Below are positions 4,193 through 47,831 of a stretch of 64,000 nt of DNA, one piece after another. Position 1 is the stretch's first letter, and the number at the start of each line of letters is the position of its first letter. The position numbers were made by a program, and so were the translations under genes. Source of the stretch: a virus (lineage: Duplodnaviria > Caudoviricetes); IMG/VR virus record IMGVR_UViG_2866783905_000002, positions 4,625 to 68,624 of that record, one strand, 5' to 3'. The notes beneath the pieces were generated by a model. The model did not search any database, was not told where the DNA came from, and saw only the letters and a list, made by a program, of their open reading frames with translations.

Positions 4193-4681
4193 GTGAGTAA
4201 CCCCTACGCGACCGATACGCCGGCCCTCCCCGCTCTCACCGAAGCAGGCATCGCCCACTTCCGGAAGCTCAACGAGCGCGACGAGAAGGAGCTGGACATC
4301 CTCCGCTCCGAGCGCACCCGCCTCAAGGCGGAGATTGCCAGCATCGACAGCGTCGTGACGGACTTGCACGAGACGATCGGCCGGCGGCAGGCCAAGATGC
4401 GCGGCGACGTCATCGCGCAGCTTCCCCTGGGTGCGGTTCCGCCGAGGAGCAACGGCTCCGACGTGATCGAGCCGACCACGGTTCAAGGGCCGGGCTCGTT
4501 CCCGGAGACGAAGCCGGACGGCCACTGCGTCCACTGCCTGGAGCCGGTGTGGCAGGTGTCGATCAGCCCGGCGAGCCCTAAGGGCTACCGCCACTCGTAC
4601 GGGGCGACGTGCAACCCGGAGGACCCGCACAGCGGCGTCGCCGAGGTCGACGAGGCGGACACAAAGGCGATCCAGTCGTGA
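4193..4681 (+). CDS. Hypothetical protein (coiled coil plus CxxC)
   Basis: RBS AGGAG before GTG; CVHC and TC motifs. Confidence 0.6.
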   Translation: MSNPYATDTPALPALTEAGIAHFRKLNERDEKELDILRSERTRLKAEIASIDSVVTDLHETIGRRQAKMRGDVIAQLPLGAVPPRSNGSDVIEPTTVQGPGSFPETKPDGHCVHCLEPVWQVSISPASPKGYRHSYGATCNPEDPHSGVAEVDEADTKAIQS

Positions 4682-21378: not shown

Positions 21379-21621
21379 GTGCAGCAAGACCCTCCCGTCG
21401 TAAAACTCCCAGGCCACCCAGCCCGCGCCGGGTACCTGTTGGAGTGGAGGCAGAAGCCGGACCGCACGTGGGAAGCGCTGGTCGAGTACATGGTCGACGT
21501 GCCCGGCGGCTACCGGGCCCACCTCGAATCCCACACGGACTGGTTCCCCGCCCACCAGGTAGAGCCCCTCGCTGGCGTCGACTACAGCCGCGTACCCCGC
21601 ATCCGAGCTCAACCAGAGTAG
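21379..21621 (+). CDS. Small hypothetical protein, probably SOS-regulated
   Basis: WEALVEY...WFPAHQVEPLAGVDYSRVPR; promoter-like site upstream. Confidence 0.65.
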   Translation: MQQDPPVVKLPGHPARAGYLLEWRQKPDRTWEALVEYMVDVPGGYRAHLESHTDWFPAHQVEPLAGVDYSRVPRIRAQPE

Positions 21622-21638
21622 TAACCCGACCCGCCACG

Positions 21639-21663
21639 AAGCCCGCCGATTGTGCGGGCTTTC
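21639..21663 (+). terminator. Stem-loop terminator
   Basis: AAGCCCGC-N7-GCGGGCTT-T. Confidence 0.6.
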
Positions 21664-21685: not shown

Positions 21686-21919
21686 ATGTCCAGCGCTGAA
21701 CGCGCCGCAGACCTTCGAGCGCAGGCCGACGCCCTCGATGCGCTGGCCAGCCTCGAAGCCGAACTGACCGCCGCGAAGGCGGCCTACACTGCCAACCCGA
21801 ATCCGGAGACGCTCGCCGCGAAGCGGGCGGCGATGGACAACATCCGCGAAGCCCGCTCCCTCACCCGCACTGAGGGTGTGTCCGTAGGCGGCGACGCCTA
21901 CGTGGATAAGGAGGTCTGA
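21686..21919 (+). CDS. Small helical protein, paralog of 43363..43632
   Basis: RBS GAGGGAG; alignable by eye with 43363 protein. Confidence 0.7.
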   Translation: MSSAERAADLRAQADALDALASLEAELTAAKAAYTANPNPETLAAKRAAMDNIREARSLTRTEGVSVGGDAYVDKEV

Positions 21920-21921
21920 CA

Positions 21922-22377
21922 GTGGCTCTCAACGGAAGCGGCCTCTTCGTCGCCACGTTCGTGGACATGCTGGACGACACCGCCCTGGACATCGACTGGA
22001 CCAGCGACACCGATCTCAAAGCCGCGCTGTACACGAACTCGATCACGACGCCCGACCTGACCACAGCTGTTGGCTACGGTGCTGCCCCGTTCAACGTCAA
22101 CGAGGTGTCTGGAGCGGGCTACACGGCCGGCGGCGCGGTCCTCACGGGCACGACTCTGACTGGCGCGGCTGGCGTGATGACGTTCGACGCGACTGATGCC
22201 CAGTGGGCCGCGTCTACGATCACAGCCGCCGAGGGCGTGCTCATCTACGACAACAGCCAGACGGGCAAGAACGGCCTCGTCCTGGTCGACCTCGGAAGCC
22301 CCTACTCGACCTCGAACGGAACGCTCCTAATTTCCTGGAGCGCGTCGGGCATTGCGGCTGTCGATCTTGTGCCCTGA
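21922..22377 (+). CDS. Putative virion structural protein ('YTAGG' family), paralog of 43616..44065
   Basis: KAALYTNSIT...EVSGAGYTAGGA...QWAASTIT...SASGI. Confidence 0.75.
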   Translation: MALNGSGLFVATFVDMLDDTALDIDWTSDTDLKAALYTNSITTPDLTTAVGYGAAPFNVNEVSGAGYTAGGAVLTGTTLTGAAGVMTFDATDAQWAASTITAAEGVLIYDNSQTGKNGLVLVDLGSPYSTSNGTLLISWSASGIAAVDLVP

Positions 22378-22405
22378 CCTGCGCTAACCATGTTCGGAGG
22401 CTGGC

Positions 22406-25117
22406 GTGGCGGTCCGGTTCGAGCCGAACGAGAACTACACCCGAGCCATGTCGCTCGGCACTCAGACGACGTGGACGGTCGCGTGCTGGGTGAAGATCGT
22501 CGTCGATACGGGGACGTTCACCACCGCCTGGGTGATCGACAACGGCGCGGCCGACTACCTCAGCCTCAAAGCCGACGGTACCGGCACCCTGATGCGCGCC
22601 TTGACCAACGAGGGCGGCACCCTCGCGAGCCGCGAGTTCACGGTCGGTACCTGGTACTTCACCGCCATCGCGATCAACGCGACGGCCGGCCGTATGGTGA
22701 CCCGGGCGATCGGTGATGGCTCGTTCACCACGGCCACCTGGTCGTCTGCGCACACGCTGAACGCAGCGAACCTGCGGATCGGTATCTGGCCGTCCAACAT
22801 GGACGGCCTGAACGGGTCCATCGCCGGGCTGAAGATCTGGCAGGCTGCCTTGTCGCAGTCGGAGATCGAAGCGGAGTACGCCCAGTTCGCGCCCGTCCGG
22901 ACGTCGAACTTGTACGCCTACTACCGGTTCGCGTCACCCAGCACCACGGACGACTCCGGTCAGGGGCGCAACCTGTCCGGCGGCACAGGCGTCACCACGG
23001 ACACGGACCCGGCGATCGGCGGAAACGCCACCGCCGCACCGGCGACCGTCCAAGCGGTCGCGTCCATCCCCGCGCCCAGCGCCACAGACGGGCAGGTCAA
23101 ACTCCGGTCACACGCCTCCGCCGCCACCCTTGGAACGTCGTCCACATGTACGGTCAACCGGCCGGCCGGGACCGCCGAGGGTGACCTGCTCCTGGCGTTC
23201 CACTCCACCAGCAACGGTCACTCCTCCGGCATGACCGCCCCGGTCGGGTGGACGCTCGTCGACACGATCGGGTCGAACTCGGCCGCCTATACCAAAGTGT
23301 GGAAGCGGACCGCGACCTCGTCCGAGCCGGGCTCGTACGCGTTCGGGCAGCTGTCCAGCTCCGAAGGCGTCGCGATCGTCGCAGCGATCACCGGCGCAGA
23401 CCACGACACCCTGGTCACCGCCCAGGGCGGCTACTCAGGCGCGACGGTCACCTGCCCCAGCATCTCCCCGGACGCGAAAAGCCTCGACCTGCGGTACGCG
23501 GCTGGCACCCTGTTCACGCCGGGCGGCATGTCGTGGTCCGCCCCAGCCGGCTACACCCAGATCGCCGACCTGCAGTCCGGGCTCTACATTTGTGGCAGCC
23601 TCGCCGTCCGTGAGTGGACCGGCGGCGCGACCGGCGCGAAAACGTTCACCGCCGGCACTTTGGGCGGCGGCACCGGCTCGTCGGTAGGCGTGAACCCGGC
23701 ACCGCCTCCATCGAACGTTGACGCCACCGCCACCCCCAGCGTGGTGTCCGGCGCCACCACGACTCCGGGTCCGACCACATCGTCCGGCTCTCGCACTGCT
23801 GCGTCTACGGTCTCGGTCGCAGCTGGTATCCCTGCGCCTACGGTCAGGGTCAACGGCACGGCCAGCGCATCAACGGTGCAGGCGAGTGCGAGCCTCCCGG
23901 CCCCGACTGTGGCTGCTGGGGTGACCGCCCAGGCCGCCACGGTGCAGGCGCCCGCGACGCTGCCCGCTCCCGCAGTTGCGGCGGTTACTACGGCGTCCCC
24001 GATCACGGTCACGGCTACCGCGTCGATTCCGGCTACTGCTACAGCCATCGGCTCTACAGCCGCCCTGAACGTCGTCGAGGCCACGGCCAGCGTGCCTGCG
24101 CCCACCACGTCTGCCGGGGCGACCTCGGCTGCTGGTGTGGTCTCGGCGACCGCCATCGTCCCTGCGGTGTCGGCTGCGTCGGGCTCAACGGCCCGCCCCT
24201 CCGTGGTGCTGGCCACCACGCAGGCTCCGACTCCGGTCATCTCCGCAGGCGCTTCGGTCGAGGCGGGTCTGGTCCAGGCCGTAGCGTCCGTCCCCGAGCC
24301 CACCGTGGCCACCGGCCAGGTCGCTCAGATTGCGACCGTCACCACGACGGTCGCAATCCCCGCACCCGAGATCGCGTACGGGCAGACCACCACAGCGGAC
24401 ACGGTCGCCGCGGTTGCGTTCATCCCGTCGCCGGCAGTCCAGTCGGGCAGCTCGACCACAGCCACCCCCGACACGGTCACAACTGCGACAGCGATCACGA
24501 CTCCGGGCGTCTCGACAGGATCCACTGCCAGCGCGCCCGTGGTCGCCGCTGAAGCCTCGATCGCTGCTTCCACGGTCTCCGCTGCGGCGACAGCGTCTCC
24601 GGGAGCTGTAGCCGCTTCTACGACGATCCCGACACCCATCCTGGCCGAGGGATCAACGGCAACCCCGGACACCATCCAGGCGAGCACCAGCATCCCCACG
24701 CCGACCGTCGAGGCCGGCGGGAACGCCACTGTCCACCCGCCTACGATCCCTGCGGCGGCGAGCATCCCAGCGCCGGGCACGACCAGCAGCTCCACAGCGG
24801 CGCCCACGCTCGTGCTCGCCACAGCCGCGGTCCCGACACCGACCACGACGGTTCTGGTCGCTGCTACGCCGGCAGCCGTTCAGGCGTACGCCACGATCCC
24901 CGCGGCGTTGATCGCGTCCACGGCGCGGCCTCCCACGGTGGCTGCGGTGGCATCCATCGCAACGCCGGCCGTGTCGAGCGGAGACCTGCCCCAAGAGATC
25001 GACATCGCCATAGGTTCGCCGCGCCGGCACTGGACAGCCGCGGAACCTCACAGAACATGGCGAGCCGAAACACCAACACGAGCCTGGTCTTCCGCCCCGC
25101 CACGACGAACGCCATGA
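22406..25117 (+). CDS. Putative virion fibre/appendage: LamG (ConA-like) domain, second beta domain, about 19 Thr/Ala/Pro-rich 22-aa repeats
   Basis: WTVACWVK...GTWYFTAI...GSIAGLKIWQAALSQSEI; repeats like TASASTVQASASLPAPTVAAGV. Confidence 0.7.
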   Translation: MAVRFEPNENYTRAMSLGTQTTWTVACWVKIVVDTGTFTTAWVIDNGAADYLSLKADGTGTLMRALTNEGGTLASREFTVGTWYFTAIAINATAGRMVTRAIGDGSFTTATWSSAHTLNAANLRIGIWPSNMDGLNGSIAGLKIWQAALSQSEIEAEYAQFAPVRTSNLYAYYRFASPSTTDDSGQGRNLSGGTGVTTDTDPAIGGNATAAPATVQAVASIPAPSATDGQVKLRSHASAATLGTSSTCTVNRPAGTAEGDLLLAFHSTSNGHSSGMTAPVGWTLVDTIGSNSAAYTKVWKRTATSSEPGSYAFGQLSSSEGVAIVAAITGADHDTLVTAQGGYSGATVTCPSISPDAKSLDLRYAAGTLFTPGGMSWSAPAGYTQIADLQSGLYICGSLAVREWTGGATGAKTFTAGTLGGGTGSSVGVNPAPPPSNVDATATPSVVSGATTTPGPTTSSGSRTAASTVSVAAGIPAPTVRVNGTASASTVQASASLPAPTVAAGVTAQAATVQAPATLPAPAVAAVTTASPITVTATASIPATATAIGSTAALNVVEATASVPAPTTSAGATSAAGVVSATAIVPAVSAASGSTARPSVVLATTQAPTPVISAGASVEAGLVQAVASVPEPTVATGQVAQIATVTTTVAIPAPEIAYGQTTTADTVAAVAFIPSPAVQSGSSTTATPDTVTTATAITTPGVSTGSTASAPVVAAEASIAASTVSAAATASPGAVAASTTIPTPILAEGSTATPDTIQASTSIPTPTVEAGGNATVHPPTIPAAASIPAPGTTSSSTAAPTLVLATAAVPTPTTTVLVAATPAAVQAYATIPAALIASTARPPTVAAVASIATPAVSSGDLPQEIDIAIGSPRRHWTAAEPHRTWRAETPTRAWSSAPPRRTP

Positions 25118-25126
25118 GAGGGGTGG

Positions 25127-25441
25127 ATGGTGCTCTGCGCTGACGGCATCCCGGAATTCCCTTCGGGGACACTGGAGTACATCCACTCCGGCACCATCAC
25201 CGGCACCTACGACCCCGCCTCCACCCCCGTCTTCATGGCGGTCGTCGCCTACAGCAACGAACCAGGAACCGACGACTGGTACCCCGCCGCATGGGACACC
25301 GAACACGGCACAGCGAAAGTCCTGTACGGGGCCGGCAGCGCCCTCGGCACGCTCGACGAAGGCATGTACGACGTGTGGGTGAAACCCGTCACCGCCAACG
25401 AGGCACCCCTCATCAAATCCGGGCCGATCAGGATCACGTGA
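25127..25441 (+). CDS. Ig-like beta-sandwich phage structural protein
   Basis: W.PAAW...G.YDVWVK...E.P pattern. Confidence 0.55.
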   Translation: MVLCADGIPEFPSGTLEYIHSGTITGTYDPASTPVFMAVVAYSNEPGTDDWYPAAWDTEHGTAKVLYGAGSALGTLDEGMYDVWVKPVTANEAPLIKSGPIRIT

Positions 25442-34663: not shown

Positions 34664-34990
34664 GTGCAGACCGGAGGGCAGACGGTCACGTTGGTGCGTC
34701 GCGTCGAATCCGGCCGGGACGCGCACGGAAACCCCGTCTACACGCAGACCCGGACAGCGGTGAGCGGCTGCTCGGTGCAGCCGCTCACCACCAACGAGCA
34801 ACTCGCGGCCGGCGCCCAAGTTCAGGGCCGGTGGAGGTTGTTCGGCCCCGCGGGCCTGAACCTGGACGGCATTGACGCCATCGAGGTGAACGGCCGCACA
34901 TACGAGATCGACGGCGAGGCGCAGGAGTGGCCGGACCTGTCCGGGCGGGCCGACCACGTCGAGGCTTTCCTGAGGAGAGTGACCGGGTGA
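34664..34990 (+). CDS. Head-to-tail stopper
   Basis: DAHGNP...GCSVQP...YEIDGE..W; position. Confidence 0.8.
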   Translation: MQTGGQTVTLVRRVESGRDAHGNPVYTQTRTAVSGCSVQPLTTNEQLAAGAQVQGRWRLFGPAGLNLDGIDAIEVNGRTYEIDGEAQEWPDLSGRADHVEAFLRRVTG

Positions 34991-35994
34991 GGATCCTCGC
35001 CAGATTTCACGCATACCCGCCACTGCACAACGCGGGCGCCGAATGGGCGGCGCACACGCTGCTGCGCGCGCTCGCCGAGCGGGGCCACCAGGTGCAGGTG
35101 TGGCTGTCGGAAGTAGCTGGGCGGGAGCCGTACGAGCTGGACGACGTCCAGGTGCTGCCGGCCCGCACGCAGAAAGACTTCGTCGAAGCCGTTCGGAAGG
35201 GCGCAGTTGTCGTCTCCCATCTGGAGAACGTCCGCTCTGCCGCGTCGGCGGCTCGCGGGTGGGGCAGGCCGCTGGTCGTGCTGGCCCACAACACCTTCCC
35301 TGGGACGTTCAAGGCGATCGGATCGGGCACGACAGCGCTGGCTGTCTACAACAGCCAGTGGATGGCCCAGGAGGCGACCAAGTTTTGGGCCAAGCACCCC
35401 GAGGCCGTCAAACCCGAGCGGGAGATCGTGGTCCGGCCGCCGGTGCACGCCGGCGACTACCGCGCCACACCGGGCGAGCTGGTGACGCTGGTCAACTTGT
35501 TCCCCAACAAGGGCGCTGATCTGTTCTGGAAGCTCGCCGCGGCCATGCCTGAGCGGAAGTTCCTCGCGGTGAAGGGCTCCTATGGGGATCAGGACGTGCG
35601 TGACCTGCCGAACGTGGACGTGGTCGAGAACGTGCCTGGCACTGACATGGCCAAGAGCGTGTACGGGCGTACCCGCGTACTGCTGATGCCCAGCGAATAT
35701 GAGTCGTGGGGACGGGTTGGGGTGGAAGCGTACGCGTCCGGCATCCCCGTCGTCGCCGCGCCCACCCCGGGTTTGAAGGAGTCACTCGGCGACGCCGGCA
35801 TCTTCGTTGAACGCGACGACCTGGACGGCTGGCGGGCCGCCGTCGAAGCGCTGGACGACCCGGACGCCTACAAAAGCGCCTCCGCTGCGGCGAAGAAGCG
35901 ATCCAAGCATCTGGACCCCGCTACGGATCTGGCGCGATGGTGCGAGGCGATCGAGGCGCTTAGTGGAAGTTCGGCTCGGCGGGCGCGCGGCTAG
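34987..35994 (+). CDS. GT4-family (GT-B) glycosyltransferase
   Basis: GAEW..H.L...L...GHQV; LLMPSEYESWGRVGVEAYASGIPVV. Confidence 0.88.
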   Translation: MRILARFHAYPPLHNAGAEWAAHTLLRALAERGHQVQVWLSEVAGREPYELDDVQVLPARTQKDFVEAVRKGAVVVSHLENVRSAASAARGWGRPLVVLAHNTFPGTFKAIGSGTTALAVYNSQWMAQEATKFWAKHPEAVKPEREIVVRPPVHAGDYRATPGELVTLVNLFPNKGADLFWKLAAAMPERKFLAVKGSYGDQDVRDLPNVDVVENVPGTDMAKSVYGRTRVLLMPSEYESWGRVGVEAYASGIPVVAAPTPGLKESLGDAGIFVERDDLDGWRAAVEALDDPDAYKSASAAAKKRSKHLDPATDLARWCEAIEALSGSSARRARG

Positions 35995-43102: not shown

Positions 43103-43366
43103 ATGTCCACGATTCAGCCGTACACGACGGCTGACCTGGCGCGTCTGAGGTCGATCCAGGCCCGCCCTCAGGGGTGGTCGCACAGGGTCAAGCCGAGAGT
43201 CACCGACGGTCGCCGCTCGTCCACGGGAGAGCGGATCAAGGTGATCCTCGACGAGCTCGGCAACAAGACGCGCATGAGACAGCACGGGCAGGACGTCAAG
43301 ATTCTCAACGTGCAGACCGTGGTCGGGCAGATCCCCGCCCACCTGGTGGATTGGAGGCGGCAGTGA
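43103..43366 (+). CDS. Hypothetical protein
   Basis: Coupled to next ORF. Confidence 0.5.
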   Translation: MSTIQPYTTADLARLRSIQARPQGWSHRVKPRVTDGRRSSTGERIKVILDELGNKTRMRQHGQDVKILNVQTVVGQIPAHLVDWRRQ

Positions 43367-43632
43367 CCAGCGCACGAGTGGTTGCGATCAGGCTGCGGCG
43401 CGAGCAGGAGTTCCTCGACGTGTGCGCCGGCCTCGAAGAGCGGTTGGAGACCGCCAAGCAGGCGGCCCGCGGTGACGCTCCGGAGTCTGCTGTGGCCGAA
43501 CTGGGGGCAGCCAAGCAGGAGATGCGGTCGTTCCGCGAGTGGGCCCGTACGGTCGGCAGCCCGAGAGAGGGCATCCCGGGCAGGGATGCGACGGTCAGGA
43601 TGGGGGGTGCTGTCAGTGGCGTGGGCAGGTAG
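43363..43632 (+). CDS. Small helical protein, paralog of 21686..21919
   Basis: RBS GGAGG; SA..LR...LE..L..AK.A...AA...R..R..RT.G shared. Confidence 0.7.
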   Translation: MTSARVVAIRLRREQEFLDVCAGLEERLETAKQAARGDAPESAVAELGAAKQEMRSFREWARTVGSPREGIPGRDATVRMGGAVSGVGR

Positions 43633-44065
43633 CGGCTGGTATGCCCAAACGCTGGTGGCGTCGCTGGGCGGGACTGAGTACCCGCTTAACTTGGACGACG
43701 ACACTCACAAGCTCGCCCTGTACGACAACACGATCACCCCCGGTTTCGGGACTGACGAGTCGTATTCGACGTCAGGCGAGATCTCCGGAACCGGCTACAC
43801 GGCTGGTGGTGCGGCGATTGCCTCGGCAACGTTCACGGTCGTTACCTCGGGCGGCGTGTACGCGGTGTGGGACGGCAACAACGTGCAGTGGGAGGCGTCC
43901 ACGCTCACCGGAGTGCGGGGCGCAATTGCGCATGCCGACGCTGAAACACCCAAGCGGCTGATACTCGGGATCGACTTCGGCCAGGCGTACCAGACCAACG
44001 ACGGGGTCCTCCTCGTGTCGTTCAACGCGTCCGGCATCGGCCGGATCAACGTCGTAAGCCCGTAG
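43616..44065 (+). CDS. Putative virion structural protein ('YTAGG' family), paralog of 21922..22377
   Basis: KLALYDNTIT...EISGTGYTAGGA...QWEASTLT...NASGI. Confidence 0.75.
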   Translation: MAWAGSGWYAQTLVASLGGTEYPLNLDDDTHKLALYDNTITPGFGTDESYSTSGEISGTGYTAGGAAIASATFTVVTSGGVYAVWDGNNVQWEASTLTGVRGAIAHADAETPKRLILGIDFGQAYQTNDGVLLVSFNASGIGRINVVSP

Positions 44066-44086: not shown

Positions 44087-44108
44087 GCCGCCTCGTGCGG
44101 CTTTTTTT
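44087..44108 (+). terminator. Intrinsic terminator
   Basis: GCCGC-CTCGT-GCGGC followed by T7. Confidence 0.65.
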
Positions 44109-44146: not shown

Positions 44147-45976
44147 ATGCCGATTGAGATTCACTCCTCCAGCCCGGCACCAGCCACCGGGTCCGGCACC
44201 ATCACCACCGCGGCCTTCAGTCCTCCCGCAAACAGTCTGCTCGTGGCTGTGGTCGGTGCGAGCGTCAGCAGCCCTGTCATCTCCAACAGCGGGACGGCGC
44301 GCACGTGGACGCTGCGCCGCCAGCATGCTTCGGCTGCGGGTGTGGCGATCTACACGGCGCCGAACCCCACTGCGCTGAGCAACATCACGGTGTCCATTGG
44401 GACCGCTACGGGCGGCCTGAAGGTCTACGTCCTCACTGGCCAGGACCCCACCAATCCGATCGGTGTCAACGGGTCCGGGTCCAGCACCCAGAACAACGCC
44501 ACCGTCAACGGGTACGTGTCGACCGCAGTCGGGTCACGCGGGTTCGCCGTCGCCTGGGATTTGTCCGGCAACGGGCTGCCGACTTCCACGGACGAAGAGG
44601 CCGCGTGGGAGCTGTTCGGCCTAGGCGGTATGGGTCTCGCCAAGGCCTCGGGCGTTGCCACCGCGGGCGAAACCGTCACGTTCAACATGGACGCGGGCGG
44701 CACGGCGGCAGCCGACTGGGCATGGGTGGCGCTGGAAATTATCTCTGCGTCGCTGGATGCGACGATCGACGCGGTCGAAGTGGAAGCTTCGGCCGAAGTG
44801 CCTGCGGTAGCGATTGAGTCTGGTCAGACCGTCCATTCCGCAGCGGTGGAAGCGTCGGCCGAGGTCCCCGCTGTGGAACTCCACGCCGGCCAAACCGCCG
44901 ATCCCGACCCCGTTGACGCTTGGGCGCAGGTCCTCGAACCGGACGTGGTCGCGGGCTCGGCGGAGCTGGTGGAGCCGACCGTGGTCGACGGCGCAGGCGA
45001 CGTGCCCGCTCCGGCGATCACAGCGGAGCAGCATAGGACCCTGACGCCGGACGCTGTTGACGCTTCAGCGGACGTGCCTGACCCGGACATCACGGCCATC
45101 CGGGCGTGGACGCTCACTCCTTCCACCGTCGAAGCGCAAGGGCTCATCCCGTCCCCGGATGTGAACGTCCCGGTTCTGCCCGGCGATCTCATCACTGGGG
45201 ACTGGCAGATCGAATGGGCCGGCCAGATATATGGCGGCCACGGCAACGTCTACCGTGTCCTCGCTGACAGCGTCGAAGGATGGGACAACCTGCCCGGCCT
45301 CGACAGCGACAGCGCGTTACGGCCCTCGCGGCATGGGGCATGGCCGGGCAAGCAACTCGCCCAGCAGCGGGAAGTGTCGGCGATCATCGCTATTGACGAT
45401 CCGCAAACGTTCGCTGCGTCCCTGCGAGCCCTACGCCGAGCGACTCGCGTGCAAGACGGTGACGGTGAGCAGAACCTCGTTATCCGCACTTACGGCGAAG
45501 CGCTGGTGACCACCGGAGTCGTCTCAGCCCGGGAGATCCCCACCCAGCACTACGGGCAAGGCTGGGCGCAGGTCAGCGTACGTTGGACGTGCTCCGATCC
45601 GCGCCGTTACAGCTTGGCACAGTACTCGCAGGTCATCCCGGCCGGCGGGACGCAGTCGATCGCCAACGCAGGGGACGTGGCGACGTCGCCGAGGTTCCGC
45701 ATCTTGGGACCGGCGGTGAATCCGGTCCTCGTCAACGTCACCCTCGATCGCATCCTCGGGTTCGATCTCACGCTGACATCGGGCCAACTGCTCGAAGTCA
45801 ATACGCAGCTCGGCACTGTGAAGATCGGCGAGACGTCCTACATGTCCACCCTGTCGGCGGAGTCTGTCCCCGTCGAGGACTTCATCGTCGATCTGGATGA
45901 CAACGAGCTGGCTTACGAAGTCGACTCCGGAGGCGCTGCAGGCGCTGAATGCCTGTGGTCTGACGCCTACCTCTGA
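44147..45976 (+). CDS. Distal-tail (Dit)-like protein with N-terminal beta domain and about 6 acidic 22-aa repeats
   Basis: C-terminal GWDNLP...RPSRHGAWPG...WTCSDPRRY...GDVATSP; repeats TVHSAAVEASAEVPAVELHAGQ. Confidence 0.75.
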   Translation: MPIEIHSSSPAPATGSGTITTAAFSPPANSLLVAVVGASVSSPVISNSGTARTWTLRRQHASAAGVAIYTAPNPTALSNITVSIGTATGGLKVYVLTGQDPTNPIGVNGSGSSTQNNATVNGYVSTAVGSRGFAVAWDLSGNGLPTSTDEEAAWELFGLGGMGLAKASGVATAGETVTFNMDAGGTAAADWAWVALEIISASLDATIDAVEVEASAEVPAVAIESGQTVHSAAVEASAEVPAVELHAGQTADPDPVDAWAQVLEPDVVAGSAELVEPTVVDGAGDVPAPAITAEQHRTLTPDAVDASADVPDPDITAIRAWTLTPSTVEAQGLIPSPDVNVPVLPGDLITGDWQIEWAGQIYGGHGNVYRVLADSVEGWDNLPGLDSDSALRPSRHGAWPGKQLAQQREVSAIIAIDDPQTFAASLRALRRATRVQDGDGEQNLVIRTYGEALVTTGVVSAREIPTQHYGQGWAQVSVRWTCSDPRRYSLAQYSQVIPAGGTQSIANAGDVATSPRFRILGPAVNPVLVNVTLDRILGFDLTLTSGQLLEVNTQLGTVKIGETSYMSTLSAESVPVEDFIVDLDDNELAYEVDSGGAAGAECLWSDAYL

Positions 45977-46016: not shown

Positions 46017-47831
46017 GTGGCGGTCCTGCGATCCACCTCATCGGCAACCAGCGCCAGCGCCTCATTCTCATGCCCCAAACCGTCGGGAACGCAGCAAGGC
46101 GACATCCTGATCGCCTTCCAAACCTGTTCCGACTTCGGCAACGGCAACATGACCACCCCCACGGGTGGTTCGCCCTGGCAACTGCTCGGACAGCGGGACG
46201 ACACCGAGTGGGCCGGAACCCGAGTCTGGTGGAAACGAGTAGGGGCGAGCGAACCAGCCGCGTACACATTCCGCCAGTCCGGAAACAACGACTCGATCGC
46301 CGCCATCGCGGCCGTCGCAGACGCCGGCACAGCAACGCCGCTTATCGCCTCCACCGAAAACGGCGCCGACGCCAGCGTGTCCTGCCCGTCAGTGTCATCA
46401 TCGCTATCCCCAGGCGTGACCCTCCGCTGGGCTGCTGGTCTGCGCTTCTCCTTCGTCGGATGGTCTGCGCCGTCGGGATACTCGGAGCATCTCGACCGAT
46501 GGCTGTCTGCTGGTGCGACGGCTTCGCTGGCGTCCCGCCCACGAACCGCGACCGGGGCGACAGGCGCTGTAGCGTTCACCGCTTCCAGCGCGCCGATTTT
46601 CAGTCACGGCTTCACCGTGGACGTCGGGGGAACTGCGGTTCCTCCCGCGCCGCCGCCGCCGGCGATCCCGCCTAGCAAGGACATTCATTACCGGTATGTC
46701 TTCTGCGATCTGCTGACGGATGACTACATCACCGACCTTGATCTGTCGGACGTCTCCTACGACCGGCGGATCGGGGAGCCGGGCAGCTTTTCTGGGTCGA
46801 TCAGTATTCCGTCCAACGATCCAAATCTTGCTGAGAAGGTCGCTGCGGTCGTCCCGCGCTACCCGGGTGACCTGTCTACGGGTCCTGGTAGGTGCGTGGT
46901 GCACGTCTACAGGAACGGCCTGATCTGGGGAAGCTACCTGATTTGGCAGGCGTCGCTCGGCATGTCCGACCGGGGCAACCTCCAAGCGCGCCTGTCGGGC
47001 GCCACCCTGGAGTCGTACCTCGATCGGGTGGAGGTCCGGGAGGACCTCGACTTCTCCGACACCGACCAGGTGGACATCGCGCGGGCGTTGATCGAGTCCA
47101 TGCAGGGGCAGGCGGGCGCCGACCTCGGGATCACCCTGGCTGCGGGCGGCAGCGGCGTCACCCGCACCGTGTCGTACTTGGCGGGGGAGTCCACCAGCTA
47201 CGGGCAGCGCTTGAACGAGCTGTCGCAGCTCAACGACGGCTTCGAGTGGATGATCCAGACCAGCGACCCCGGAGCCGGTACACGGATTCGTGAATGGGTT
47301 TTCGGCTATCCGAAGATCGGCGAAACCGACACCGAGCACCTGTTCACCCAGCCGGGGAACGTCGTGTCGTGGCAGGAAGACATCGACGCCACGCGAGGCG
47401 CCACGAGCTTCGTAGCGCGTGGTGAGTCCGTCAACGAGGACGCGTCCAGCTCGGGTGGCCCCACCCTGTCCGTACCGCACGACGCCGCGGCGCACTTCGC
47501 CGCCGGATGGCCCCGCCTCGACTCGACCATCACCGCGCACTTCCAGCGCGACACCGACACGCTCGACGACTACGCGGCCCGCTACGCGGCACAAAACGCC
47601 GGCGCCGTCCGCGTCCACCAAGTCTCCATCCGCCTCGACGGCGACGACTTCACCCCCGCCCACCTCGGCGACCGAGCCCGGGTCGTGCTCGTCAACCAGT
47701 GGTGGCCCCGACTCAACGGCGCCGCGTCCTTCGACCAGTCATGGCGGGTCATCGGCATCTCCGTCCAAGCAACCACACGAGGCCAGCGCGAGACCGCGCA
47801 ACTGGTCTTCGAGGAGGTCATCGACTCATGA
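46017..47831 (+). CDS. Minor tail / hub (Tal-like) protein with N-terminal beta domain
   Basis: RBS GGGAGG before GTG 46017; DLSDVSYDRRI..PGSFSGSI, HVYRNG..WG. Confidence 0.75.
   Translation: MAVLRSTSSATSASASFSCPKPSGTQQGDILIAFQTCSDFGNGNMTTPTGGSPWQLLGQRDDTEWAGTRVWWKRVGASEPAAYTFRQSGNNDSIAAIAAVADAGTATPLIASTENGADASVSCPSVSSSLSPGVTLRWAAGLRFSFVGWSAPSGYSEHLDRWLSAGATASLASRPRTATGATGAVAFTASSAPIFSHGFTVDVGGTAVPPAPPPPAIPPSKDIHYRYVFCDLLTDDYITDLDLSDVSYDRRIGEPGSFSGSISIPSNDPNLAEKVAAVVPRYPGDLSTGPGRCVVHVYRNGLIWGSYLIWQASLGMSDRGNLQARLSGATLESYLDRVEVREDLDFSDTDQVDIARALIESMQGQAGADLGITLAAGGSGVTRTVSYLAGESTSYGQRLNELSQLNDGFEWMIQTSDPGAGTRIREWVFGYPKIGETDTEHLFTQPGNVVSWQEDIDATRGATSFVARGESVNEDASSSGGPTLSVPHDAAAHFAAGWPRLDSTITAHFQRDTDTLDDYAARYAAQNAGAVRVHQVSIRLDGDDFTPAHLGDRARVVLVNQWWPRLNGAASFDQSWRVIGISVQATTRGQRETAQLVFEEVIDS

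Follow-up and report, generated by a model that had tools for sequence, protein, structure and literature searches.

Paired gene modules for candidate chain-like virion fibres, one upstream of the terminase genes and one in the tail region, in an actinobacterial siphovirus prophage

The window considered here is the whole stretch of 64,000 nucleotides taken from IMG/VR record IMGVR_UViG_2866783905_000002 (positions 4,625 to 68,624). It is part of a 106-kb contig (G000:C458:11305-75304) in a genome of 9.7 Mb with 67.6% GC, and the region is a siphovirus prophage; homologs with a named source are from Nonomuraea, Microbispora, Actinomadura and Streptosporangium. A multi-gene kit is present twice in this window. 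It consists of a small coiled-coil gene, a gene for a small protein of family phrog_644 (the YTAGG protein) and a gene for a protein combining globular N-terminal domains with repeats of 22 amino acids (aa). The first copy, the pre-terminase module, lies just upstream of the HNH, TerS and TerL genes in the same orientation, and the second one lies in the tail gene block, where its repeats belong to a Dit-like protein, Dit609. Together they represent a probable chain-like fibre system of an actinobacterial siphophage, in which the repeats are once fused to Dit and once form a free, LamG-tipped rope. That both loci encode rope-and-bead ('chain-like') virion fibres is the favoured reading and is given about an even chance. 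The features are listed in Table 1.

Table 1. Features of the two modules and their immediate surroundings (window coordinates)
Feature	Coordinates	Strand	Basis
GC-rich hairpin	21639..21661	+	just upstream of cc77; read directly as AAGCCCGC...GCGGGCTT
cc77, small coiled-coil-like protein, first gene of pre-terminase module	21686..21919	+	G189 homolog L097:9980-10213, E 5e-11
YT1, YTAGG protein (phrog_644), candidate bead of pre-terminase fibre	21922..22377	+	HMM, AF2 fold, Bxb1 gp31 profile match
p903, candidate rope protein	22406..25117	+	LamG, repeats, domain 2; homologs of 868-1241 aa adjoin YTAGG genes
LamG / concanavalin-A-like domain of p903	22460..22867	+	Pfam PF13385 E 1.2e-9, 39 bits vs cut-off 27.6
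Domain 2 of p903, phrog_3329-like, all-beta	23117..23653	+	phrog_3329 E 3.1e-14; AF2 pLDDT > 90
18-copy tandem 22-aa repeat array, proposed docking sites	23792..24979	+	autocorrelation, repeat HMM
p104, small Ig-like protein 3' of p903, possible anchor	25127..25441	+	conserved after fibre gene in G189, G010
p87, small conserved gene 3' of tape measure gene	43103..43366	+	homologs precede both module kinds in relatives
p89, coiled-coil-like counterpart of cc77	43363..43632	+	shared match L104:9248-9433
YT2, tail copy of YTAGG protein	43616..44065	+	paralogy to YT1, phrog_644 HMM
Terminator-like hairpin GCCGC-CTCGT-GCGGC, then T7	44087..44108	+	between YT2 and Dit609; read directly
Dit609, Dit-like protein	44147..45976	+	phrog_5577, phrog_33, gene order
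Tal-like minor tail protein, N-terminal domain 2 copy	46017..47831	+	phrog_1885 E 2.7e-49; phrog_3329 E 2e-6

The two YTAGG proteins, YT1 (151 aa) and YT2 (149 aa), share 38% identity over the full length (E 2e-25), and each is matched over its full length by the phrog_644 hidden Markov model (HMM; E 2.9e-16 and 1.6e-13, respectively). The homology of this pair, which an earlier sequence-only reading of the window had proposed from alignment by eye, is thereby confirmed. The same reading had also paired the small upstream proteins. Direct comparison of cc77 with p89 is insignificant (E 0.1); each of them matches one small gene of a related prophage, at L104:9248-9433 (E 6e-8 for cc77 and 5e-9 for p89). 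Because both match this gene, their homology, as judged from the sequences, is transitive, via the intermediate only.

The third component of the pre-terminase module, p903 (903 aa), begins with the LamG domain (residues 19-154), followed by a single repeat (209-230), domain 2 (238-416), 18 tandem repeats (463-858) and a C-terminal tail (859-903). The LamG domain, recognized already in the earlier reading, exceeds the gathering threshold of its Pfam family. Autocorrelation of the p903 sequence peaks at lags 22 and 44 (0.32 versus a background of about 0.17). The repeat HMM gives 19 copies in p903 (one isolated and 18 tandem) and six in the Dit-like protein, as in the by-eye counts of about 19 copies and about six acidic ones, and the two repeat arrays align with each other (E 2e-12). 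The p903 repeats are composed of 27% Ala, 19% Thr, 11% Ser and 11% Pro. The 22-aa repeats are old and diverged; no tandem repeat was detected by Tandem Repeats Finder in the DNA of either repeat-protein gene. Recurrence of domain 2 at the N-terminus of the Tal-like protein, also noticed earlier, holds as well: residues 252-416 of p903 are 35% identical to it (E 5e-14). A Foldseek search of domain 2 against the Protein Data Bank (PDB) returned nothing at E <= 1e-3, and in the VIA-wide comparison the matches listed were taken up by the low-confidence repeat portion.

In the tail module, Dit609 consists of an N-terminal globular domain (residues 1-205), six acidic repeats of 22-24 aa (206-345) and the Dit core (346-609). 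This assignment is based on HMM matches to phrog_5577 (E 5.7e-41) and phrog_33 (E 9.8e-10, residues 343-561), with a sub-threshold match to Pfam SPP1_Dit (E 0.099), and on the position of the gene between the tape measure and Tal-like genes. 'Evolved' Dit and BppU-type baseplate accessory proteins are known in Gram-positive siphophages, where Dit is a platform displaying extra binding domains; in Dit609, by contrast, the extra parts form an N-terminal arm (domain plus repeats) and are not galectin-domain insertions. A relation between the N-terminal domain of Dit609 and domain 2 was also considered, but hhalign gave only E 0.03 with a probability of 1.7%, and no relation is claimed.

To date, chain-like fibres have been solved in three podophages only, namely GP4 (Zheng 2023, J Mol Biol 435:168258, PDB 8JOU), VP1 (Pang 2024; gp11) and A1002 (PMC13730344). 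In these fibres a rope carries a row of docked dimers, formed by proteins of 140-171 aa and bound by beta-sheet augmentation, so that the sequence-only reading, which knew of no description of a protein polymerising along repeats, had overlooked a principle already published for podophages (PMC13730344). The GP4 rope is a separately encoded protein with five dimers (PMC13730344); PDB entry 8JOU holds ten chains of GP4 gp80 (chain 8jou_a), i.e., five dimers. In A1002, eleven gp40/gp41 dimers are arranged on about 270 residues in gp39, the nozzle-rope protein, over about 300 Å; an Ig-like (immunoglobulin-like) domain is located at the far end of this protein, while its C-terminal part is built into the tail (PMC13730344). 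Directly 3' of gp80, GP4 encodes gp79 (325 aa; MH638294, L120 57947-58924) with about ten 20-22-aa repeats of the I-x-L-x-G-x-G type. This protein, for which no match was found among PDB sequences, may be the rope protein.

The AlphaFold2 (AF2) model of YT1 has a predicted local distance difference test (pLDDT) value of 92.8. All nine solved-structure matches with Z >= 4.9 are phage baseplate, tail-tip, neck or fibre proteins, and unrelated rows do not exceed Z 3.9. The highest values (Z 11.5-11.9) belong to a domain of a T4 baseplate chain with 1,004 residues and to the equivalent in a Klebsiella phage, and the best match to a small protein is gp31 of Bxb1 (Z 9.6, root-mean-square deviation (rmsd) 2.3 Å). 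The match to GP4 gp80 (Z 7.7, rmsd 3.3 Å, 122/136 residues (VIA)) falls into a 'middling' range; Z < 8 may reflect a mere common arrangement. The same gp80 is the top match of YT1 in a Foldseek search against the PDB (E 1.7e-2, probability 0.99). In the ESM Atlas, Gp80 ('Podophage GP4 fiber I protein') is the nearest named cluster to YTAGG (score 0.86), which is treated as a lead only. Other matches include an HFTV1 tail protein, A511 gp105, neck proteins of Sf14 (Z 6.4) and Bas63 (Z 6.0) and, weakly, the 'garland' chain 9rkv_A of phage 7-7-1 (Z 4.9).

The podophage systems offer several likenesses and several differences. In all three the bead is small (140-170 aa there), with a beta-sandwich fold that, as judged from gp80, may be similar. 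In GP4, the gene directly downstream of the bead gene encodes a protein whose repeats measure about 20-24 aa. The A1002 rope forms an N-terminal arm on a tail-ring protein and has a globular domain at the end, as in Dit609, although it is fused to the nozzle protein there and to Dit here. In contrast to all three, the system described here belongs to a siphovirus of an actinomycete host and includes a bead with no detectable sequence homology to GP4 gp80, as well as a second, free rope with 18-19 sites carrying LamG and another domain. Docking was seen in the podophages, whereas here both docking of beads on the repeats and its stoichiometry are inferred.

Polymerisation of the YTAGG protein along the 22-aa repeats is plausible, because there is a solved podophage precedent that both the fold match and the gene order fit. 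The YTAGG protein would be a beta-sandwich bead and the 22-aa repeats an extended rope, in which each repeat or repeat pair could offer a beta-strand for docking one bead or bead dimer; fibre length would then be set by the length of the repeat array. In the tail module, the N-terminal arm of Dit would serve as the rope with six sites and a globular cap, and the tail tip would have six such arms pointing outwards, decorated with YT2. The rope of the pre-terminase module would be free p903 with 18 + 1 sites, decorated with YT1 and carrying LamG and the second beta domain at its distal, N-terminal end. This free rope could be held on the virion by the short C-terminal tail, by Ig-like p104 or by both. 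The AF2 monomer of the p903 repeat array shows short strands at pLDDT 42-58, in contrast to more than 90 for the adjacent domain 2, and this poor modelling of the isolated array was counted in favour of a rope.

The phrog_644 family, which has no functional annotation, was surveyed for its neighbours. A profile of relatives retrieves 5,209 clusters (50% identity) at E <= 1e-3; the members are mostly stand-alone proteins of 140-160 aa, some being tandem doubles of about 290 aa. Members occur in 240 phage records; in some cluster O mycobacteriophages they carry the annotation 'minor tail protein'. A tblastn search with YT1 or YT2 gave a single weak match each. In 80 IMG/VR loci (GC 30% to 71%), periodicity of 21-25 or 42-48 aa was present in 14/68 open reading frames (ORFs) located 3' of a phrog_644 gene versus 13/388 other ORFs (odds ratio 7.5), but related loci are counted with no phylogenetic correction, so that the nominal p-value overstates the case. 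Several of the 13 periodic 'other' ORFs are the second gene downstream of phrog_644. In this kind of survey, which the sequence-only reading had suggested, a protein with 22-24-aa repeats thus frequently comes next after a phrog_644 gene.

Individual cases are found in annotated phages. Corndog gp63 precedes gp64 with 23-aa repeats, Onyinye gp43 (22-aa repeats) adjoins gp44, and CcrSwift gp073 (phrog_644) lies ahead of the gene for a 'lectin-like' protein of 2,797 aa that contains 22-24/45-aa repeats. In CcrSwift, a phiCbK-like Caulobacter phage (NC_019411, L118, 36331-45214), the repeats lie near residues 2227-2540, and a terminator is annotated between gp073 and the gene for the 2,797-aa protein. 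This terminator and the terminator-like hairpin after YT2 fit production of the bead in excess over the rope. The downstream proteins in loci L043 and L066 alternate two 22-aa variants, which results in a 44-aa period; such alternating units, together with the tandem-double YTAGG proteins, fit a dimer as the docking unit. A phrog_644 member also occurs in the satellite phage MiniFlayer (OQ357865, L113, 5186-9997), where gp6, 74% identical to the member in the uncultured contig L012, immediately follows the major capsid gene and is itself followed by gp7 (68 aa) and gp8 (1,376 aa); L012 has the same layout.

Several points weigh against the rope-and-bead reading, in addition to the middling Z value for gp80 and the uncorrected survey. 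Comparison of YTAGG with gp80 by sequence (hhalign) gives a probability of 0.15-0.2%, the Pfam family Gp80 (PF23140) has no match in YT1, YT2 or 36 relatives, and gp80 is assigned to phrog_240, not to phrog_644. Both the repeats and the YTAGG proteins range from acidic to neutral, which leaves no charge complementarity, and no terminator is present 3' of YT1. The low-confidence AF2 model of the repeats resembles a solenoid, and the array could be an autonomous stalk. Finally, the nearest solved sequence relative, Bxb1 gp31, is described as a six-copy arm between the wing base and the brush and is not known to form chains.

The last two points are the core of an alternative that is considered unlikely but serious. 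The YTAGG protein could be a single-site adaptor similar to Bxb1 gp31, one copy or dimer of which joins the fibre to its base, with the repeats self-folding into a stalk, either a thin beta-solenoid or an extended one, whose only role is to keep the binding domains at a distance from the tail. In Bxb1, the wing, which is dispensable, has gp30 as its base, and the 'tail wing arm' gp31 and the brush gp33 are both fixed to it (PMC12646305). Six gp31 chains are present in the tail tip (PDB 9D93, chain Ra), and gp31 contacts the wing base gp30 only. It is the sole solved protein within sequence reach of the family: the broad family profile (A7) matches residues 5-105 of gp31 (9d93_Ra) with E 6.2e-6, the narrower profile A1 does not reach it in the PDB, and its fold match to YT1 is better than that of gp80. 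As YTAGG may do, gp31 belongs to the accessory parts of an actinobacteriophage tail tip. At its low confidence, the AF2 repeat model aligns to beta-helix and leucine-rich repeat solenoids (Z 7-8.6), and globular domains of homologs are also connected by runs of 2-4 repeats, much as by a simple linker.

At the same time, gp31 differs from the YTAGG proteins in being 106 aa long and lacking the first ~35 YTAGG residues, and its partners are the carboxypeptidase wing base gp30 and the glycine-rich brush gp33, with no 22-aa repeat array. No gp30-like base was found among the neighbouring genes scanned, since the ten module proteins compared with Pfam and PHROGs gave no peptidase family such as that of a D-Ala-D-Ala carboxypeptidase. 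The single-site adaptor also leaves unexplained the frequent adjacency of phrog_644 to proteins with 22-24-aa repeats, the 44-aa alternating units and the terminator after YT2; moreover, a regular solenoid normally yields a confident model, unlike this array.

The location of the p903 fibre is a separate question, which fits either mechanism. A position at the head-tail collar or on the head, not at the tail tip, is regarded as possible but doubtful. The Bxb1 genes upstream of the terminase, gp4 to gp6, are virion appendage genes in an actinobacteriophage by GenBank annotation ('tail collar fibers', gp4; 'tail collar spacer', gp6), but no sequence or fold link between them and the module proteins was found, and no YTAGG-like gene is present there. 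In MiniFlayer-like genomes and phiCbK-like phages, phrog_644 is placed among the head genes, the chain-like fibre of GP4 extends upwards from the tail to a docking site on the capsid (PMC13730344), and two of the weaker fold matches of YT1, those in Sf14 and Bas63, are neck proteins. Against this location, the fibre shares its domains with Dit and Tal, the best fold matches of YT1 are baseplate or tail-tip proteins, p104 gives a weak lead to the baseplate domain BppU_N, and no collar protein was identified in this phage. The head or collar filament favoured by the earlier reading is not upheld; the shared domains, the Dit fusion and Ig-like p104 point at least equally to the tail.

The pre-terminase module is much likelier than not to be a virion appendage module. 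Its reading as a non-virion system, in which the lysogen, or the cell during infection, would make a lectin-like protein that is secreted or sits at the cell surface and whose Thr/Ala/Pro-rich linker may be glycosylated, is highly improbable: the Ala/Thr/Ser/Pro-rich repeats resemble actinobacterial linkers, the repeat search also matches proteins with glycosidase or esterase domains and a glycosyltransferase is encoded in the structural operon, but the module is co-oriented with the HNH and terminase genes just downstream, its YTAGG gene and small genes have paralogs among the tail genes, the same repeats, where they are built into Dit, are by construction a tail component, and the p903 N-terminus, read by eye with no signal-peptide predictor, shows no signal peptide or membrane anchor.

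YTAGG genes are present in 11/201 genomes of the same family, and the module layout is kept in 10 other genomes. All carriers have one YTAGG copy behind tape measure, p87 and the small coiled-coil gene, and ahead of Dit and Tal, in this order. Two other species, one from the same genus and one from a different genus, have prophages with both the pre-terminase and the tail module on one contig, 23-25 kb apart with the pre-terminase module upstream; their fibre genes, each with a p104-like gene behind it, encode proteins of 956 and 1,071 aa made up of domains and about 20-27 repeats. Display domains (LamG, Dit N-terminal type, domain 2) are shuffled among Dit, Tal and the free fibre, and short runs of 2-4 repeats join the globular domains in homologs.

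The Dit protein of the relatives occurs in two forms. Either the N-terminal display domain and repeats are fused to it, or the arrangement is 'split', with the display domain encoded by its own gene and a short Dit opening with three 23-aa FE(T/S)xxEWPxL repeats. In split modules L098:16411-17490 and L108:11680-12762, Dit comprises about 360 aa (FESASEWPxL / FETEAEWPALT), and the display-domain gene (228-230 aa) is located just upstream. The split tail module may be a non-covalent version of the fused arm. In the G189 tail module a 312-aa Cys-rich HNH-like ORF (L098:14668-15606) lies between the small YTAGG-associated genes and the display-domain gene; it is possibly a homing endonuclease inside the module.

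In the YTAGG tree, the proteins group by partner-repeat and module type. Tail-fused (support 93/91) and tail-split (100/99) copies are placed apart from the rest, while the pre-terminase copies, together with an IMG/VR relative and distant family members, fall opposite to them in a weak, unresolved grouping (87/92); the pre-terminase label requires two changes on the tree. Because pre-terminase and tail copies are split into old lineages, the two YTAGG copies are, on this phylogenetic basis, old paralogs, or one of them was acquired as a module. The duplication of the module claimed in the sequence-only reading thus stands as paralogy, but not as a recent event.

The C-terminal part of p903 and the adjacent gene could be responsible for attachment. 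The tail of 45 residues (window 24980-25126) contains three 9-residue RxW units, PRRHWTAAE / PHRTWRAET / PTRAWSSAP. This motif is kept in the G010 homolog (SRRAWS, PRRAWS, SRSWS), and the G189 homolog has three SLGG units instead. Locus L002 has p104 joined to the C-terminal end of a protein with LamG and repeats, and this fusion marks the C-terminal end of the fibre as proximal. The BppU_N HMM (PF10651) matches one of six p104 family members weakly (E 0.056), and BppU_N is found in 12-14% of the members of the p104 clusters in the Atlas, also a weak lead. Stop-codon read-through from p903 into p104 was considered, as the two genes are in frame and 9 nt apart here, and was rejected: in G189 and G010 they are in different frames, each with its own ribosome-binding site. 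The shared frame of the p903 stop and the p104 ATG looks coincidental.

The late genes of the prophage begin with HNH, TerS, TerL, portal, protease, scaffold and major capsid. These are followed by connector proteins, a glycosyltransferase, tail terminator, tail tube, chaperone and a 1,407-aa tape measure, and then by three small genes, the Dit-like and Tal-like genes and lysis genes; this order includes no separate fibre gene 3' of Tal. The glycosyltransferase gene (34927-35994, +) within the head-tail connector block matches phrog_26352 (E 2.8e-137) and phrog_2170 'glycosyltransferase' (E 9e-14). Together with the Thr/Ser-rich fibre repeats, it raises the question of virion glycosylation. 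An 80-aa Trp-rich ORF (21379-21621, +) precedes the pre-terminase module and is followed by the GC-rich hairpin (21639-21661); a similar ORF is present in G010 (L100:9033-9257). The hairpin has no clear T-run, and the terminator scan made no call there. Megablast of the module DNA against phages gave no match, and the NCBIfam scan returned no family for any module protein.

A broader proposition is put forward tentatively, with somewhat less than even confidence. A phrog_644 gene together with adjacent 22-24-aa-repeat ropes may be a general signature of chain-like fibres, an architecture that would be widespread beyond the three podophages; in the present lineage the rope would be fused to Dit and, in addition, form a free LamG-tipped fibre, with repeat number setting the length. 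If this is true, a large family with no annotated function (> 5,000 clusters, 240 sequenced phages) would receive a structural role, and chain-like fibres could be spotted in sequences by a simple rule, namely a small phrog_644 gene beside a 22-24-aa repeat array. The fibre type would extend from three Gram-negative podophages to long-tailed phages of actinomycetes; its carriers would include actinobacterial siphophages, the satellite MiniFlayer, many mycobacteriophages and Gordonia phages, phiCbK-like phages of Caulobacter and F116-like phages of Pseudomonas. The rope could then be built as an arm of Dit, with interchangeable LamG-like or other beta domains at the tip, and such modular, length-tunable appendages would be obvious candidates for host-range determinants.

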